DNA from: a virus
Lineage: Duplodnaviria > Heunggongvirae > Uroviricota > Caudoviricetes
Length of the DNA: 7,046 nucleotides
IMG/VR virus record: IMGVR_UViG_2563366883_000009
Reading direction: 5' to 3' (one strand)
The notes below the pieces were generated by a model. The model did not search any database. It saw nothing but the letters and a program-made list of their open reading frames with translations, and was not told where the DNA came from. Positions 1,596-6,255 of the stretch are shown here, piece after piece (the stretch's first letter is position 1; the number at the start of each line of letters is the position of its first letter). The position numbers and the translations under genes were made by a program.

Positions 1596-1784
1596 GTGTT
1601 AAGCACAGATCGCTTTATACGTGAAAAAGAATGTCAGCAACTTACAGGCCTGAGCCGCTCATGTCGGTACCGCCTGGAAAAAGCCGGACAATTCCCATCA
1701 CGGCGTAAGCTGGGCGGTCGTTCCGTTGGCTGGTCTTTATCCGAAGTTCTGGCATGGAAGGACAGCTGCGAGGCAGTTCACTAA
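1596..1784 (+). CDS. alpA: AlpA-family phage regulatory protein (small HTH transcriptional regulator/excisionase-like, 62 aa)
   Basis: GTG start at 1596 preceded by GGGGG (1587-1591). Protein carries the AlpA-family signature LTGLSRS..YRL.KAG.FP...KLGGRSVGW...EV.AW. Position directly after int is typical for this family. Confidence 0.88.
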   Translation: MLSTDRFIREKECQQLTGLSRSCRYRLEKAGQFPSRRKLGGRSVGWSLSEVLAWKDSCEAVH

Positions 1785-1790
1785 TCAGGC

Positions 1791-1809
1791 TGGCGGCACA
1801 CAGCCGCCA
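1791..1809 (+). other. Stem-loop (TGGCGGC-acaca-GCCGCCA) just after the alpA stop, without a U-tract
   Basis: Perfect 7-bp GC-rich inverted repeat with 5-nt loop; the following sequence is not T-rich, so it is not a canonical intrinsic terminator. Possible RNA structure or partial attenuator. Confidence 0.3.
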
Positions 1810-1836: not shown

Positions 1837-3114
1837 ATGAATACTGGATATTCTCCCGAACAAGGGCGGGGCTTCGTTCGTCCTGAAAAACAGAATCTGC
1901 AAAATTTTGCCGAAATTATTCCGGTTATTTCCGGCCTTACTGGCGGGAGTGAAACCAATATTGTTAACGCCAGAGCGTTGCAGATGTTTGATGATAAAAA
2001 GGGAGTAAATTTAACTTACACCCCTGACGGCAATCAGAATATGAGCATTATCTCTGAGTCAGGTTTCTACAAACTAATAAAAACAAAAAGCGCCCCGTTG
2101 CCGGAGCGCCTTTGTGAACAATTAACCTACTGCGCAAAAAATGAATCTGAGCAGTGGGATTATATCAACCATGTGGAGAAGCGCCACAATTGCCGAATAA
2201 CGGGCAAAACAAAGGCCACCCGCTACGGTGGCCCCTCGACACAAGCTACACGTTATCCCCAACGCATGAGCATTGCCAACAATGCCACATTTGCGGCTGG
2301 TGGGCAATGCAATCAGTCTGGTTCAGTTCGTTGCCATACCTGCAATGAGCGCTTTTCCCTGTACTCTTTAAGGAATTGCTCAAGGGCAAAAGCACATGGC
2401 GCGAATCTTTCTGATTCATGCTCTATCTTTCTGCGCCGTCTTTTCCGTGCCGGTGATAATGTTTTGGTCAATTCTTTATCGGTCATTGTGTTGTCCTGCA
2501 TAGCAATGCGCCGTAGTTACTCACACCACGGCGCTGGTGATGGTTACTCCTGCTCTTTGGCCTTGCGACGCTGGCGGCGTTTGATCTCACCTTTAACGGC
2601 AGTAACTATAAATTGCGCCTTGCTTTCACCTTCATCTAAATTTTTTTCTAAGTCTGCAACAACATCATGCGGGAATCTGGCATTTAACTGTTGCGACTTA
2701 TTATTTGTTGAACCTGTTGCCATTACTGAATCCTCTCTAAGTTGGTGCGATTCAGTATACACAAAAAAAATTTCAGAGAAAGACTTGAAGTGCGATTCAC
2801 TTACTGATAGGTTAAAAACGAATGGTGCGATGCACCAAACAACAACGCCCCGCAGTGGTGGCACACATGCAGGGCGTCTAACCACCAACGATAGCGAAAG
2901 TATCGAGGTAGCTATGAGAAATCATACCATACACCCGCAAGGGCGGGACTCGCACAACCTGAATAAATACATCTGGCGTTTTATCGCCCTGAGCACGGCA
3001 CAACCGCGCGTGATTACCATTGAGGCCACCAGCGAACAGGAAGCACGCCAGCAATCTCCGGCTGGCTGCGTGATGGTATTTGCTGCCCGTATTCGTCAGG
3101 GGGTAGGCTTATGA
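1837..3114 (+). CDS. Longest open frame (425 aa); probably not one genuine gene. The 5' ~380 nt looks coding-like (weak Bro-N/antirepressor-like stretch NMSIISESGFYKLIKTKSAPL), the middle is antisense to a better-supported minus-strand gene, and the 3' 200 nt is probably the separate small gene 2914-3114
   Basis: No in-frame stop from 1837 to 3114 and no Shine-Dalgarno before the 1837 ATG. First-codon-position composition is purine-rich (coding-like) in 1837-2220 but T-rich (about 44 percent T by hand count) in 2521-2760. The translated middle section is Cys/Ser-rich. Confidence 0.3.
   Translation: MNTGYSPEQGRGFVRPEKQNLQNFAEIIPVISGLTGGSETNIVNARALQMFDDKKGVNLTYTPDGNQNMSIISESGFYKLIKTKSAPLPERLCEQLTYCAKNESEQWDYINHVEKRHNCRITGKTKATRYGGPSTQATRYPQRMSIANNATFAAGGQCNQSGSVRCHTCNERFSLYSLRNCSRAKAHGANLSDSCSIFLRRLFRAGDNVLVNSLSVIVLSCIAMRRSYSHHGAGDGYSCSLALRRWRRLISPLTAVTINCALLSPSSKFFSKSATTSCGNLAFNCCDLLFVEPVAITESSLSWCDSVYTKKISEKDLKCDSLTDRLKTNGAMHQTTTPRSGGTHAGRLTTNDSESIEVAMRNHTIHPQGRDSHNLNKYIWRFIALSTAQPRVITIEATSEQEARQQSPAGCVMVFAARIRQGVGL
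2201..2233 (-). terminator. Candidate rho-independent terminator for the minus-strand module
   Basis: Perfect hairpin GGCCACC-cgctac-GGTGGCC (2214-2233), followed on the minus strand by TTTGTTTTG (complement of plus 2205-2213); lies about 80 nt past the stop of the minus-strand ORF ending at 2313. Confidence 0.45.
2313..2486 (-). CDS. Hypothetical small basic protein (57 aa, MTDKELTKTLSPARKRRRRK...), possible second gene of the minus-strand operon
   Basis: ATG at 2486 preceded by AGGA with 5-nt spacing; the ORF track starts 5 codons earlier at 2501 without an SD. Codon statistics are equivocal and there are several rare Arg codons. Confidence 0.3.
   Translation of the reverse strand: MTDKELTKTLSPARKRRRRKIEHESERFAPCAFALEQFLKEYREKRSLQVWQRTEPD
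2544..2723 (-). CDS. Arc/Mnt-like ribbon-helix-helix DNA-binding protein (59 aa); putative repressor
   Basis: Internal ATG at 2723 of the 2544-2888 minus ORF, preceded by GAGAGGA about 8 nt upstream. Protein LNARFPHDVVADLEKNLDEGESKAQFIVTAVKGEI aligns by eye with the P22 Arc pattern FNLRWPREVLDLVRKVAEENGRSVNSEIYQRV (beta-strand, helix A, G-x-S turn, helix B). First-codon-position composition is G>A>C>T, as in real genes, by hand count. Confidence 0.7.
   Translation of the reverse strand: MATGSTNNKSQQLNARFPHDVVADLEKNLDEGESKAQFIVTAVKGEIKRRQRRKAKEQE
2724..2913. promoter_or_regulatory. Divergent AT-rich control region with three direct repeats GTGCGAT(T/G)CA (2745-2754, 2790-2799, 2825-2834) and a TATACT -10-like element for the minus-strand gene (plus coordinates 2754-2759)
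   Basis: Repeats read directly; copy 1 overlaps the candidate -10/start region of the RHH gene. An inverted pair TGAATC (2727-2732) / GATTCA (2749-2754) flanks the RHH RBS. The -35 assignments are weak. Confidence 0.5.
2914..3114 (+). CDS. Hypothetical small protein (66 aa); likely first gene of the plus-strand operon (alternative model to the 425-aa ORF)
   Basis: ATG at 2914 preceded by GAGGT (2905-2909); coding-like first-position composition (T about 12 percent) and high GC3; stop overlaps the next start in ATGA at 3111-3114. Confidence 0.5.
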   Translation: MRNHTIHPQGRDSHNLNKYIWRFIALSTAQPRVITIEATSEQEARQQSPAGCVMVFAARIRQGVGL

Positions 3115-3341
3115 GCCAGGAAATCACACTACAACAGGCAGCAGAACGCGCCCACCAAATCGAAGTTATTTGCGCACTGGCAGAGGATTACCCTGGCATG
3201 ATGACCGACAGCGAATCAGGGGCAATCATCGGCTTACTTAAACGCCTTAGCGGTGAGGTCTGCGTATTCCTGAGCGATGAACAGGAAAGAAGAACGCTTA
3301 TTTCTAACGAAAAAAAATGCGGAGGGGTACATGTGCAATAA
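3111..3341 (+). CDS. Hypothetical small protein (76 aa)
   Basis: ATG at 3111 overlapping the upstream stop (ATGA); GGGGGTAGG RBS at 3096-3104; protein-like composition. Confidence 0.6.
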   Translation: MSQEITLQQAAERAHQIEVICALAEDYPGMMTDSESGAIIGLLKRLSGEVCVFLSDEQERRTLISNEKKCGGVHVQ

Positions 3342-3555
3342 AACCACACCGGACGCAGCCGCCGCCGCGCTCACTACGCTGATGCACGCGCTTATTGATA
3401 TTTCTGTTATTGCTGACAGGGCGCATAAACACGCAGCCAGAGAATCAGAATGCATCTTCCATTATTTAACATTTGTGCAGCTAAAAGCCGATCAGGCACT
3501 GGATAAGGCCGGAAAAATTATCATGGCTGATGTGCAGGAGGTGCACCATGCATAA
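3331..3555 (+). CDS. Hypothetical small protein (74 aa from the internal start; the ORF track gives 3277)
   Basis: ATG at 3331 has a GGAGGGG RBS (3321-3327) and only an 11-nt overlap with the upstream gene; the 3277 ATG lacks a good SD and would overlap by 65 nt. Confidence 0.5.
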   Translation: MCNKTTPDAAAAALTTLMHALIDISVIADRAHKHAARESECIFHYLTFVQLKADQALDKAGKIIMADVQEVHHA

Positions 3556-3913
3556 CCTGTCAATTTCTGACCTTAACAGCATTCAGTTTGACGAGAAATT
3601 TACCGGGCAGTTGCTGGTCAATGTGGAGAACGGGCGCATAGTGCGTAATTATCACCTGCCGGATGGTGCAATTGCCGGAAGCGTTGAAGCATTGCTGGAA
3701 CTGGCGGAACGTGCGCGACTGATTAAGCCGTCAACGAGCCATCACGATGATGATCTGCATTTTACCGGATGTATGGTGAGTCACTACGAAAACGGCGTCG
3801 AGGTATCCTGCGAACGGCTGCGTGATGATTGCTGTTTCGGCACACTGCCGGAATTTATCGAGTTGCTGACCAGTTGCGGTTATCAGGTCATTCAGGGGGG
3901 TAAACATGCGTGA
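3548..3913 (+). CDS. Hypothetical protein (121 aa from the internal start; the ORF track gives 3530)
   Basis: ATG at 3548 preceded by a perfect AGGAGG (3536-3541) with 6-nt spacing; overlaps the upstream stop by 8 nt. Confidence 0.65.
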   Translation: MHNLSISDLNSIQFDEKFTGQLLVNVENGRIVRNYHLPDGAIAGSVEALLELAERARLIKPSTSHHDDDLHFTGCMVSHYENGVEVSCERLRDDCCFGTLPEFIELLTSCGYQVIQGGKHA

Positions 3914-4127
3914 TGATCGTTTTAATTCCCTGAAACAGGAATTTTCCGGCGTTCCTGATGATGCGGCTGATGCGCTTTCGTCAATGCCAGAGCTTATTAG
4001 AGCGGATTTTTTCTTACTTTCCACGAGAGAATATAAATCAACGGGGCTTGATGTACTGAATATCGTCGCCGATTATGCTGATTTCGTGACAGAGGTTATT
4101 TTAAGAAAAACGACGGACGGGGATTAA
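3906..4127 (+). CDS. Hypothetical small acidic protein (73 aa)
   Basis: ATG at 3906 with GGGGGG RBS (3895-3900); overlaps the upstream stop in ATGCGTGA. Confidence 0.6.
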   Translation: MRDDRFNSLKQEFSGVPDDAADALSSMPELIRADFFLLSTREYKSTGLDVLNIVADYADFVTEVILRKTTDGD

Positions 4128-4128
4128 T

Positions 4129-4362
4129 ATGCGTGATATTTACCTTGAAACAATAGACCGCGCATTTCTTGCACTTTCTCACAGTGAAAGCATGATGGAA
4201 ATATTACGCATATGGCTTGAAACACTTGGCGACAATGAACGCAACAAACAAAAATCAAGAATTGCCACGGCATTAATAACGCTTCTTGAGCCTGTAATAA
4301 TGGAACTGCAAGAAATAGATCTATTGCACGATATATATAAAGAACAGCACACCGGAGAATAA
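4129..4362 (+). CDS. Hypothetical small protein (77 aa)
   Basis: ATG at 4129 one base after the upstream TAA; GGGGA RBS at 4119-4123. Confidence 0.6.
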   Translation: MRDIYLETIDRAFLALSHSESMMEILRIWLETLGDNERNKQKSRIATALITLLEPVIMELQEIDLLHDIYKEQHTGE

Positions 4363-4367
4363 AAATA

Positions 4368-4667
4368 ATGAAACTTAAATATTCTGGCTTAACTGCCAGT
4401 GGCAACACTCACCCTAAATTTACGCGCGGTGATATTTACCGCGACCAGTACGGCGGCACGGTAATGATTAAGGGCGTGGAAGAACGGCGCGTAACCTACC
4501 GCCGTGAAGGTTACGAATATGATTGCGTGATGCCTGTTTATCAGTTCCGGCGTGATTTTTCTCTGGTACAGACCGCGCCGCATAACGTGCCCACCAGCAA
4601 CGCCAGGGCACGGGCAAACATCCAGAAGCTGAAAACCATGATTAACGGATTCAGGGGCAAGAAATGA
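4368..4667 (+). CDS. Hypothetical protein (99 aa)
   Basis: ATG at 4368 with GGAG (4354-4357); stop overlaps the helicase start in ATGA at 4664-4667. Confidence 0.6.
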   Translation: MKLKYSGLTASGNTHPKFTRGDIYRDQYGGTVMIKGVEERRVTYRREGYEYDCVMPVYQFRRDFSLVQTAPHNVPTSNARARANIQKLKTMINGFRGKK

Positions 4668-6064
4668 AAAGCGCACCGAACTTAAAAAAACAGCCTTACG
4701 ACAAGATGACCGAAGTCATTATTTTTGCGGGTAGTGATGCCTGGGCACATGCGAAACAGTGGCAGGAACAGGACGGGCGACTGGCTGGCGATAATGTGCC
4801 TCCCGTTGTGCTGGCTGATGATCAACTGGATGAACTGGCAGACCTGAGAATCATCGACGAGGGGCGCTATTGTGTCCGGCTGTACAAGGCAGGCCACATC
4901 AGGCCATCAAATATTAATGCCATTGCGCACAAGCTGGCGGCGGCGGGTGTAACTGATGCGAATTATTACCCCGAAGGGATGCACAGCCATATGCGGGAGA
5001 ACTGGCGCGAATACCTGGAACGGGTGCGCGGGAAAGAGCCGGCGGAAGAAAAAAACCACCAGCGAAAAACCACGCTACCGATGAGCGTTGGATCTACCGG
5101 ATACGACACGCAACTGGATTACGTGGTTAAGGGGATTATTCCGGCGGTATCGCTATGCAGCATATACGGGGCTAGCGGGTCCTATAAATCATTCCTTGCC
5201 GGATCGTGGGCGTGCCATGTTGCCACTGGTCGCCAGTGGGGAGGCCGCAGGGTTGCACATGGTGCGGTTCTCTATGTGGTTGGTGAAGGCGGTATAGGTG
5301 TTCCGCGTCGTGTAAAAGCCTGGGAGGTTGTGCACGATGAGCAGGTGAAAAATCTGTATCTGGTAAACCGCCCCATCTTTCCGGCTGCCCCGCTTGATGT
5401 TGATGAAATGGTTATCGCTGCCCGTCAGGTGGAGCGGGAAACGGGTAAACCTGTACGCATGATTATTCTGGATACGCTGGCGCGTTGCTTTGGTGGGAAT
5501 GATGAAAATGATTCCCGTGATATGGGGGCGTTTATCCGTGGTTGTGACGAACTGAAACGACGCACAGGGGCCACGGTGCTGGTGGTTCACCATTCCGGCA
5601 AGGATGAGACGAAAGGCGCGCGCGGTTCCAGTGCATTTCGTGCTTCGCTGGATGCTGAATACCGGATACGCAGGGAGGACGCAGGAAGCGAAGCGCTGGT
5701 TATCTCATGCACCAAAATGAAGGACGCGGAGGAACTCAAAGAAGCCGCATATGACTTACGCGTGGTGGAGCTTTTTACCGACGCTGACGGTGAATTAATC
5801 ACGTCGCTGGTGGTGGTGGATGATCCGCGCCCTCCTGTTGAACTGGAGCGCATCGAGGAGGCAGGGAACAAGACGGAAAACCATACCGCGCTATGGGGGT
5901 GCATCCGTTCACGCACACAGAACGGCGACAAGTGCACGATCCCGCTGTTACGTGATGACATGAAAAAGCTGGGGTATGAAATGAAAAACTTCCGGCGCTG
6001 GCTGTACAAGCTGGAAAAAGATGGGGTTATTCGTATCGATGGGGATGATGTAGCGCCGCTATAA
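4664..6064 (+). CDS. Replication protein: RepA/DnaB-like (AAA_25-type) helicase ATPase with an N-terminal toprim-like region (466 aa); satellite/PICI-type primase-helicase module
   Basis: P-loop-like IYGASGSYKSFLAGSWACHVATG, Walker B-like MIILDTLARCFGG and the VLVVHHSGKDETKGARGSSA motif typical of RepA-like helicases. The N-terminal TEVIIFAGSD...VVLADDQLDE stretch is toprim-like by eye only. Translationally coupled to the upstream gene. Confidence 0.9.
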   Translation: MKSAPNLKKQPYDKMTEVIIFAGSDAWAHAKQWQEQDGRLAGDNVPPVVLADDQLDELADLRIIDEGRYCVRLYKAGHIRPSNINAIAHKLAAAGVTDANYYPEGMHSHMRENWREYLERVRGKEPAEEKNHQRKTTLPMSVGSTGYDTQLDYVVKGIIPAVSLCSIYGASGSYKSFLAGSWACHVATGRQWGGRRVAHGAVLYVVGEGGIGVPRRVKAWEVVHDEQVKNLYLVNRPIFPAAPLDVDEMVIAARQVERETGKPVRMIILDTLARCFGGNDENDSRDMGAFIRGCDELKRRTGATVLVVHHSGKDETKGARGSSAFRASLDAEYRIRREDAGSEALVISCTKMKDAEELKEAAYDLRVVELFTDADGELITSLVVVDDPRPPVELERIEEAGNKTENHTALWGCIRSRTQNGDKCTIPLLRDDMKKLGYEMKNFRRWLYKLEKDGVIRIDGDDVAPL

Positions 6065-6255
6065 AAGTGAGGAGCAAAAGCGAGGTGGATAGAAAGAGGG
6101 CCAAAATTAGCCTGCTCTCCCTCACTTTTCTACCTGTATACATCCTCAAAAGTGAGGGGTAAAAAAATACTTATGAAACACACACATAGAAAAACCAAAA
6201 ATCCCAATTGCGACGAAGTGAGACGCTTGAAAAAGTGAGGCGAAAAAGTGAGAGG
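6063..6255. repeat. Iteron-like array of AAAAGTGAGG: perfect copies at 6063-6072, 6148-6157, 6231-6240 and inverted at 6119-6128; degenerate copies at 6077-6086, 6214-6223, 6244-6253; with an A/T-rich spacer at 6160-6205. Candidate replication origin
   Basis: Read directly from sequence, starting at the helicase stop codon. In SaPI-type elements the ori with iterons sits immediately 3' of the rep gene. Confidence 0.55.

Follow-up and report, generated by a model that had tools for sequence, protein, structure and literature searches.

A long reading frame held open across antisense small genes in the regulatory region of an EcCICFT073-type phage satellite

The IMG/VR record IMGVR_UViG_2563366883_000009, a 7,046-nt stretch of Caudoviricetes DNA that we refer to as the window, is the regulatory region of a phage-inducible chromosomal island (PICI) of the EcCICFT073 type, that is, of a phage satellite. 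Between positions 1837 and 3114, a plus-strand open reading frame (ORF) of 425 codons lies opposite two small minus-strand genes, and a preliminary description made from the sequence alone had presented these as two mutually exclusive gene models. The comparison with relatives speaks against such a choice, as the frame is also open in other genera, its stops are depleted about five-fold, stop codons are avoided at synonymous sites and the phase is kept. Judged from sequence, both gene layers occupy the same DNA, with minus-strand YlcI/YnfO and 57-aa genes that are real and a plus-strand frame that is held open by selection without amino-acid constraint. We regard it as reasonably probable that the long frame and its short 3' form are a nested pair of the eta/kil type described in P4, in which translation of the long frame would carry AlpA-driven transcription through the immunity cassette. 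By the same analogy, it is probably the act of translation, rather than the protein made, that matters for the long frame. The main features are as follows (aa, amino acids; PGAP, Prokaryotic Genome Annotation Pipeline).

1837..3114, plus strand: eta-like long ORF of 425 codons with an ATG start, running from just past alpA to the Icd/Kil-like stop, mostly without amino-acid constraint
2313..2486, minus strand: 57-aa gene, second in a leftward operon (PGAP WP_000130015.1), with an AGGA Shine-Dalgarno 7 nt upstream
2544..2723, minus strand: YlcI/YnfO-family small DNA-binding-type protein of 59 aa, predicted ribbon-helix-helix (RHH), candidate immunity repressor
2745..2834, no strand assigned: three operator-like direct repeats in the divergent control region (GTGCGATTCA at 2745 and 2790, GTGCGATGCA at 2825)
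2914..3114, plus strand: Icd/Kil-like short form of 66 aa, with its own GAGG Shine-Dalgarno at 2905-2908 and with frame and stop in common with the long ORF

The long ORF is preceded by an in-frame TAA at 1819-1821. It had been described as open for 1,278 nt, and this was confirmed: there is no stop in frame 1 between 1837 and 3114, whereas the two remaining plus frames contain 26 and 27, and at the stop rate of these frames the chance of 425 open codons is about e^-26. The openness had also been said to include about 190 nt of AT-rich intergenic DNA where the other frames are full of stops. In this stretch (2724-2913), where no gene is called on either strand, frame 1 indeed contains no stop and the other plus frames contain 5 and 4, which makes "full" slightly overstated; its G+C content is 0.45 overall, so that the AT-richness is a local matter (G+C of 0.365 in 2601-2800).

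A protein search with the 425-aa translation gave 2,192 hits. Since such a sample is biased toward called ORFs, the loci were instead collected through the conserved Icd-like core only, from 9 E. coli genomes, 11 species genomes and 80 viral or satellite contigs, and the 900 nt upstream of the core were scored for stops in 54 dereplicated representative loci. The Icd frame was open for 250-480 codons upstream in most loci. Whether related elements carry stops in the long frame had been named as a check: the Icd frame held 176 stops in the 54 loci against 964 and 965 in the other plus frames, a depletion of about five-fold that is found in the Icd frame only. The median length of the longest plus-strand open frame was 286 codons out of at most 300, and at least 180 codons were reached in 50 of the 54 loci; the medians were 88 codons for dinucleotide shuffles and 105 for the minus-strand frames of the same DNA. 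The whole open frame spans 352 codons in Cedecea, 361 in Rahnella, 315 in Enterobacter, 347 in Superficieibacter, 284 in Rosenbergiella, 357 in Intestinirhabdus and 248 in Tenebrionibacter, and the upstream peptides are unrelated among these genera except opposite the RHH gene and the terminator hairpin. Full-length open homologues, which were to count against the preliminary description if their domain architecture was conserved, are abundant (the best 120 of the 2,192 hits measure 265-540 aa, nearly all 300-540, with identity down to 59% at full coverage), and the peptide upstream of the Icd-like part is unrelated across genera.

We then considered the ratio of nonsynonymous to synonymous polymorphism (pN/pS), calculated by segment of the window ORF from distinct homologous sequences. 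In the ORF frame, it was 0.87 in the terminator segment (2086-2312) and 0.91 in the control region (2724-2913), with polymorphic columns spread evenly over the three codon positions in both. Selection on the plus-frame amino acids throughout, an outcome that had been envisaged earlier, is therefore not seen in the segments free of overlap. In the segment opposite YlcI, pN/pS was 0.34 in the minus frame and 0.40 in the plus frame, and opposite the 57-aa gene it was 0.38 in the frame of that gene and 0.63 in the ORF frame. Both frames look constrained opposite the minus-strand genes because their wobble positions are shared (plus position 3 faces minus position 3). Purifying selection on amino acids is thus visible in the minus frames (0.34 and 0.38), and the plus frame has stop avoidance only, with a ratio of about 0.9 where it is free of overlap. 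A true antisense overlap of the kind known from compact phage and satellite genomes, offered earlier as the alternative, is favoured by the data in a specific form: real small genes overlap a selected frame, and the selection acts on openness and not on amino acids.

Stop avoidance could be followed opposite the YlcI gene, where a plus-strand stop is possible only at a minus-strand Tyr, His or Gln codon that comes after a codon ending in T or C. When the synonymous codons of 17 YlcI alleles, less than 85% identical to each other, were randomised, the expected probability of an open antisense frame was 0.15-0.84 per allele; the frame was in fact open in all 17. Multiplied together, these expectations give about 3e-9 with E. 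coli codon usage and about 1e-5 with permutation of each allele's own codons only, independence being approximate. Phase was examined through the distance between the YlcI ATG and the Icd core, a gap-run analysis of blastn alignments being too noisy at module boundaries. The distances were 227, 230, 242, 245, 248, 251, 252, 254, 260 and 404 nt, nine of the ten being 2 modulo 3, the value required for phase (binomial probability of about 4e-4). The lineages that are out of phase (L004 type, at 252 nt, and a few others) show no decay and retain an ORF of 219-401 codons that crosses the cassette in a different frame. Among the commonest, the L004 and L060 types, this ORF stops about 20 nt before the Icd-like ATG; elsewhere its end lies further upstream or within the Icd-like gene. 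Roughly a fifth of the loci keep a long ORF that is not fused to Icd. The Icd fusion is therefore dispensable, and an open frame across the region is not. As a family-matched control, lambdoid-prophage ylcI genes, including that of K-12 DLP12, had antisense openings of only 39-90 codons.

The Icd/Kil-like segment is the sole well-conserved, clearly protein-like part of the long frame. The window C-terminus matched the NCBIfam model phage_ICD_like (NF033153) with E = 1.4e-19 (69.9 bits, cut-off 25), the segment is under purifying selection (pN/pS of 0.17 for 2914-3111), M360, the start of the short form, is nearly invariant in homologues, and PGAP calls short forms of 66-68 aa in relatives. Upstream of the Icd-like ATG, a block of about 70-85 nt (2830-2913) is 90-96% identical where the neighbouring DNA has diverged, and its predicted folding is somewhat stronger than that of shuffled sequences (z = -2.3). 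The rightward operon may have its 5' leader or its promoter in this block.

Three further features lie at or before the 5' end of the long frame.

1596..1784, plus strand: alpA, a Vis/AlpA-family regulator gene (Pfam Phage_AlpA, E = 3e-18; PGAP WP_000953274.1 in RM8385 and CFT073)
1791..1809, plus strand: GC-rich hairpin TGGCGGC-acaca-GCCGCCA between the alpA stop and the long-ORF start, a putative element from sequence reading, with no T-run after the hairpin
1837..2085, plus strand: degenerate Bro-N domain remnant, sub-threshold for Pfam Bro-N, that continues in frame into the downstream sequence, the BRO gene having lost its C-terminal half

The alpA gene stands directly upstream of the long ORF, and the order is the same in all relatives possessing alpA. 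The N-terminal 83 codons of the window ORF are a degraded Bro-N domain: the Pfam model (PF02498) scored 14.4 bits against a gathering cut-off of 25.6 bits, over profile positions 37-85 only, alignment to intact Bro-N proteins revealed deletions of 8 and 9 aa, both in frame, and a break after GFYKLI, and PHROG anti-repressor matches fell at aa 49-88 of the long ORF. Two classes of long-ORF start were found among relatives, the window belonging to class 1. In this class, the ATG lies 52-57 nt past the alpA stop, behind acagag(a/c)t.taacc, and is the start of a Bro-N-type protein that is intact and separately terminated in some relatives (locus L003). In the many relatives of class 2, the long frame has no N-terminal domain and begins 8-11 nt past the alpA stop, inside the terminator hairpin and behind a strong Shine-Dalgarno of the AGGGGAG type; from its sequence, this arrangement looks like genuine translational coupling to alpA. 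As noted in the preliminary description, no canonical Shine-Dalgarno is present upstream of ATG 1837, where the sequence reads acagagatctaacc.

These termini bear on the possibility that the long frame encodes a functional fusion protein, with a Bro-N-type N-terminus, an unconstrained linker and an Icd/Kil C-terminus, and that openness simply preserves this protein. We consider it rather unlikely. Full-length homologues are common and some have an intact Bro-N domain (P0091, E = 2e-14), the in-phase Icd fusion is the majority state, and P4 Eta is counted as a Bro-network protein in PMC10111431. However, the Bro-N domain of the window is degenerate (14.4 vs 25.6 bits, with two internal deletions), class-2 relatives start inside the terminator hairpin without any N-terminal domain, about one in five loci keeps the long ORF unfused to Icd, and the linker has a pN/pS of about 0.9. 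The AlphaFold model of the 425-aa ORF, built with 36 homologues, likewise has a predicted local distance difference test (pLDDT) score of 27 throughout; being this low even over the conserved Icd-like part, the model says little either way.

The middle of the long ORF is not conserved at the protein level. Residues 160-296 contain 16% Ser, 12% Leu and 7.3% Cys, with T at 39% of first codon positions, and the composition profile shows a strong plus-strand T-over-A skew between 2300 and 2700 that is typical of DNA coding on the opposite strand. The preliminary description had called this Cys/Ser-rich, T-rich middle non-coding-like, which holds for the protein sequence (not conserved, pN/pS of about 0.9) and fails for the frame, which is not there by chance. 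It had also predicted that automated callers would annotate the long ORF and miss the repressor. Records of the exact 425-aa translation, named "host cell division inhibitor Icd-like protein", do exist for at least 1000 contigs, and its equivalent in CFT073 is the 428-aa GenBank hypothetical protein c1487 (AAN79956.1), but current PGAP does otherwise. On the DNA of E. coli O103 RM8385, a 100% match over 1837-3114, RefSeq PGAP calls three small genes, namely the 57-aa gene (2313..2486, minus strand), the 59-aa YlcI/YnfO gene (2544..2723, minus strand) and a 94-aa Icd-like gene (2830..3114, plus strand); it does not call the long ORF and places nothing at 1837-2312. In one relative (L006, 1469-1748), PGAP calls a plus-strand "Icd-like protein" pseudogene opposite the 57-aa gene, which is an annotation echo of the long-ORF database entries.

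These observations bear on whether the long ORF is a non-functional shadow frame, produced by chance or composition opposite two real small genes and spread by annotation pipelines. The Ser/Leu/Cys-rich middle with its T-rich first codon positions, the lack of a domain or confident fold there and the PGAP calls fit this account, and coinciding wobble positions let the conservation of the minus-strand genes partly mimic plus-strand constraint. We nevertheless find it very improbable, and the comparative data already disfavour it strongly: about 400 nt of the openness lie beyond any minus-strand gene and openness is repeated in unrelated sequence in seven other genera, stops are avoided at synonymous sites in all 17 alleles, phase is kept in nine of ten spacer lengths, and the lambdoid ylcI genes exist without a long antisense frame.

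Turning to the minus strand, a well-formed small DNA-binding-type protein had been proposed there, and the gene at 2544..2723 bears this out. Its 59-aa product matched the NCBIfam model YlcI_YnfO_N (NF041551) with E = 7e-17 (61.2 bits, cut-off 30), in agreement with the PGAP name, and phrog_949 with E = 3.5e-24. It has 134 detectable homologues across Enterobacterales, and its GAGG Shine-Dalgarno lies 8 nt upstream of the ATG. The AlphaFold monomer (41 sequences, moderate confidence with a pLDDT of 70) was extended over residues 1-18, with helices at 19-30 and 35-58. With this model, Foldseek placed ParD RHH antitoxins nearest, with TM scores of 0.57-0.65 that are not significant (E > 1), a sequence search of the PDB gave no match even at E <= 10, and there was no match to the Pfam Arc or RHH families. 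The earlier term "Arc-like" is therefore reasonable as a predicted fold type, membership not being demonstrated. The second gene of the leftward operon encodes a 57-aa protein that matched phrog_21027 (E = 1e-15). A toxin-antitoxin pair formed by the two genes, a possibility prompted by the ParD resemblance, is disfavoured, since the 57-aa gene is missing from many relatives that have the RHH gene. The 57-aa protein shares a 90% cluster with 101-aa "YlcI/YnfO" proteins that are by eye unrelated to it, which is probably a clustering artefact.

Two terminator-like elements are oriented for the minus strand.

2086..2113, minus strand: terminator-like hairpin with a T-run
2205..2233, minus strand: intrinsic-terminator-like hairpin GGCCACC-n6-GGTGGCC followed by TTTGTTTTG, found by eye about 80 nt 3' of the 57-aa gene

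The second hairpin reads "KTKAT..GG" in the long ORF, and an apparent counterpart motif, K[TE]KA.., occurs at the equivalent place in most relatives' translations. A terminator-like hairpin with a short T-run is also present on the plus strand at 2326-2350, inside the long ORF and opposite the 57-aa gene; if real, it would be suppressed by translation through the hairpin only.

The repeats of the control region share the consensus GTGCGAT(T/G)CA in three copies. Among relatives, the 10-13-nt repeat is specific to the YlcI allele (examples are GTGTGTTTCA, GTGTAAGACA, GTGTTCAACAC, GTGGCTGACACCT and TGTGCGCACA), the same allele is accompanied by the same repeat, and the positions are kept, at 22 and 67 nt or at 67 and 92 nt from the YlcI ATG. 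Such allele-linked repeats have the pattern of an immunity-specificity module, made of a repressor and its operators, and this covariation, the strongest functional clue, makes the YlcI/YnfO protein the candidate repressor of the island. Other cassette variants embed a small gene, RHH-like by eye, antisense at the same position. Two of these genes match DUF3950 above the Pfam cut-off, that of L092 has only a sub-threshold HicB match, and that of L015 has no family match. In every non-RNA variant that we opened (YlcI-A, YlcI-B, DUF3950-type, L015 and L092), a small RHH-like gene lies antisense within the long frame. That the minus-strand small ORFs are instead mere shadows of a real long frame is barely credible: pN/pS opposite YlcI is similar in the two frames (0.40 plus vs 0.34 minus), but a curated model exists for the YlcI family, homologues occur without a long antisense ORF (K-12 DLP12 ylcI), the gene has a good Shine-Dalgarno, minus-strand terminators and operator-like repeats that covary with the allele, and the 57-aa gene has its lower pN/pS in its own frame (0.38 vs 0.63).

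The precedent for the eta/kil-type reading comes from P4. According to PMC10111431, kil of P4 (65 aa) lies within the longer eta in the same frame, and eta is coupled to vis, the homologue of alpA. The late promoter upstream is the only one from which eta can be translated. This translation prevents termination, which is Rho-dependent, and late transcripts thereby pass through the immunity region; both the CI RNA and its seqA target lie within eta. The short gene of the P4 pair is a killer or cell-division-inhibitor gene, and the promoter that serves the long frame is activator-driven. The same paper traces the eta/kil mechanism to Forti et al. (1999, J Bacteriol 181:5225), treats Eta as a Bro-network protein and already likens the PICI "Bro zone" genes to eta. 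We located the P4 eta ORF (L101, 8812..8168, minus strand); its Kil end matched phage_ICD_like with E = 1.4e-20 (73.1 bits) and its middle matched Pfam Phage_ASH (PF10554) with E = 4.5e-23, a domain also present in some relatives of the window ORF, such as P0126. From the profile that they share, the window C-terminus is homologous to P4 Kil at the family level. For the satellite side, EcCICFT073 is the reference Gram-negative PICI, in which helper phages switch on alpA and a reporter of "ORF3" is AlpA-dependent (Fillol-Salom et al., 2018; PMC6092414). From gene order, ORF3 is probably c1487, the 428-aa equivalent of the long ORF.

We infer that the long frame is translated and that its translation prevents termination, the Rho dependence of the latter being suggested by analogy with P4. 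Under the eta/kil-type reading, the RHH protein of the uninduced island would bind the allele-specific direct repeats and keep the promoter of the rightward Icd-like/replication operon off. A helper phage would then turn on alpA and give rise to an AlpA-driven rightward transcript, and ribosomes on the long frame would sustain RNA polymerase, protecting the transcript from polarity. Transcription would run head-on through the leftward repressor operon, with its terminators and operators, into the replication operon, and this read-through would bypass and perhaps silence the repressor. Translation could be continuous from alpA through the long frame and, via the ATGA at 3111-3114, along the chain of overlapping ORFs to the helicase gene. 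More tentatively, we suggest that the long frame is a sequence-agnostic "translational bridge" past the antisense RHH gene and that this gene encodes the missing master repressor of Gram-negative PICIs. If so, induction would proceed by translation-coupled read-through that bypasses and silences immunity, and not by inactivation of the repressor; the system would be the protein-repressor counterpart of the RNA immunity of P4, and the long frame would rank among the clearest examples in nature of an overlapping antisense ORF that is kept for the act of translation alone.

Several points weigh against the eta/kil-type reading. The window start at 1837 has no good Shine-Dalgarno and lies 52 nt past the alpA stop, which makes coupling to alpA less obvious than in the class-2 relatives. 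A Pfam search did not find Phage_ASH in the window ORF, and a direct BLASTP of this ORF against P4 Eta was not significant (E = 0.45), so that the homology to P4 rests on the shared profile, at the family level. An Rfam scan of the window at E <= 1 gave no match, and thus no CI or seqA RNA. The plus-strand RNA is only moderately C-over-G and pyrimidine-rich; this composition was considered as a Rho-loading signal and, being only moderate, was not used as evidence. The Rho dependence is wholly extrapolated from P4, and the case for translation of the long frame is a comparative one. Because the sequences share ancestry, the multiplied probabilities given above for the YlcI alleles overstate independence. 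Finally, a minority of loci break the frame near Icd (L084, L013 and L014).

A P4/P1-type C4 or CI RNA was rejected for the window element, which has no Rfam match, the models working on P4 and on the Escherichia albertii relative L013. Rfam C4 and isrK were found inside P4 eta and inside L013, and not in CFT073 or the other relatives tested. In L013, isrK (seqA-like) and C4 (CI-like) occupy 2235-2423, just upstream of the Icd-like core. This comparison suggests a single conserved read-through frame that can hold either an RNA or a protein immunity cassette as an insert.

The rest of the window agrees with the island assignment. It contains, in order, a tyrosine integrase gene, the AlpA-family regulator, the long-ORF region, a chain of small overlapping ORFs, DUF4222 and a RepA-type helicase gene; this layout of int, alpA and replication module matches that of Gram-negative PICIs, the late and packaging genes being outside the window. 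The RM8385 island adjoins roxA and pepT, and the integration site beside roxA is common to the RM8385 copy and to EcCICFT073 in CFT073. The Int, AlpA and 57-aa proteins are identical to those of EcCICFT073, and the int-alpA spacer has one substitution as compared with CFT073. At 1231-1238, a homopolymer is T8 in the window and CFT073 and T7 in RM8385, the sole difference between the window and RM8385 within the parts compared. Just 3' of int, at 1258-1322, we observed five phased copies of an ACAAC-containing unit at a spacing of 10 nt, and a sixth copy within 1519-1543, about 50 nt upstream of the alpA start; these units may be AlpA or integrase arm-type binding sites in the alpA promoter region. 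Downstream of the long frame, the Icd-like stop overlaps the next start (ATGA), and PGAP on the RM8385 copy gives an unbroken chain of overlapping or abutting small ORFs from 3111 to 6064, up to the helicase gene, which is consistent with one translationally coupled operon. The region 3' of the helicase gene (6063-6255) holds AAAAGTGAGG iterons, in three 17-nt copies spaced by about 84 nt, and a tight cluster of AAGTGAG(A/G)(C/G)G, and is probably the replication origin of the island.

The island, the ORF, the P4 eta/kil paradigm and, from PMC10111431, the analogy between the Bro zone and eta were already known. Our literature searches on YlcI/YnfO/DUF3950, on Icd-like proteins with PICIs and on AlpA with antitermination found no account of the antisense cassette or of the conservation of the open frame. 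We could not find in the literature searched the antisense RHH cassette in an eta-like frame, the comparative evidence for openness without constraint, or the candidate PICI repressor. The annotation conflict between one "Icd-like" protein of 425-428 aa and three small genes would be resolved, both layers being meaningful. The best-studied Gram-negative PICI family, described without a known repressor (PMC6092414), gains a candidate with allele-specific operator-like repeats. PICIs are also tied closer to P4, through a fourth shared gene, a shared nested-gene logic and RNA and protein cassettes that appear interchangeable. Strict stop avoidance, phase conservation and neutral amino-acid change together form the clean signature expected of an ORF selected only for being translated, and functional antisense ORFs, which are contested in bacteria, become directly testable in a tractable system (CFT073 with pBAD-alpA).

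Compared with known systems, the YlcI protein resembles the RHH proteins Arc/Mnt, CopG and ParD in its small size, in its predicted strand-helix-helix order and in the direct-repeat operator-like sites of its own promoter region, and differs from such repressors and antitoxins in having no significant sequence or Foldseek match to a solved RHH protein. A second parallel is the immI region of P1 (c4 antisense RNA, icd and ant), where downstream transcription depends, through polarity, on whether a small leader gene is translated. The short form bears the NCBI name "Icd-like", the likeness to P1 Icd being by name alone; unlike P1, the window has no c4-type RNA by Rfam and no ant gene after the Icd-like gene.

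The likeness to eta/kil of P4 is more extensive. In both, a long frame lies directly 3' of a Vis/AlpA homologue on the same strand, long and short forms have a common frame and stop, the short forms belong to phage_ICD_like, an immunity determinant is embedded in the long frame and the replication operon comes next; in many relatives of the window, the start is also close-coupled to the alpA stop. The immunity determinant differs, being a same-strand CI RNA with seqA in P4 and an opposite-strand protein gene cassette in the window, and the eta frame has 197 codons as compared with 425. Anti-termination, described for P4, is proposed for the window element.

A further known system is EcCICFT073, which has the same gene order and the equivalent 428-aa ORF c1487. 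It differs from the window in its YlcI allele and operator repeats, and in having a primase where the window has the RepA-type helicase. Gram-negative PICIs have been described as unidirectional, without a clear repressor and with only three P4-related proteins (PMC6092414); the present data extend this description by a repressor-like cassette in antisense orientation and by a fourth P4-related gene.

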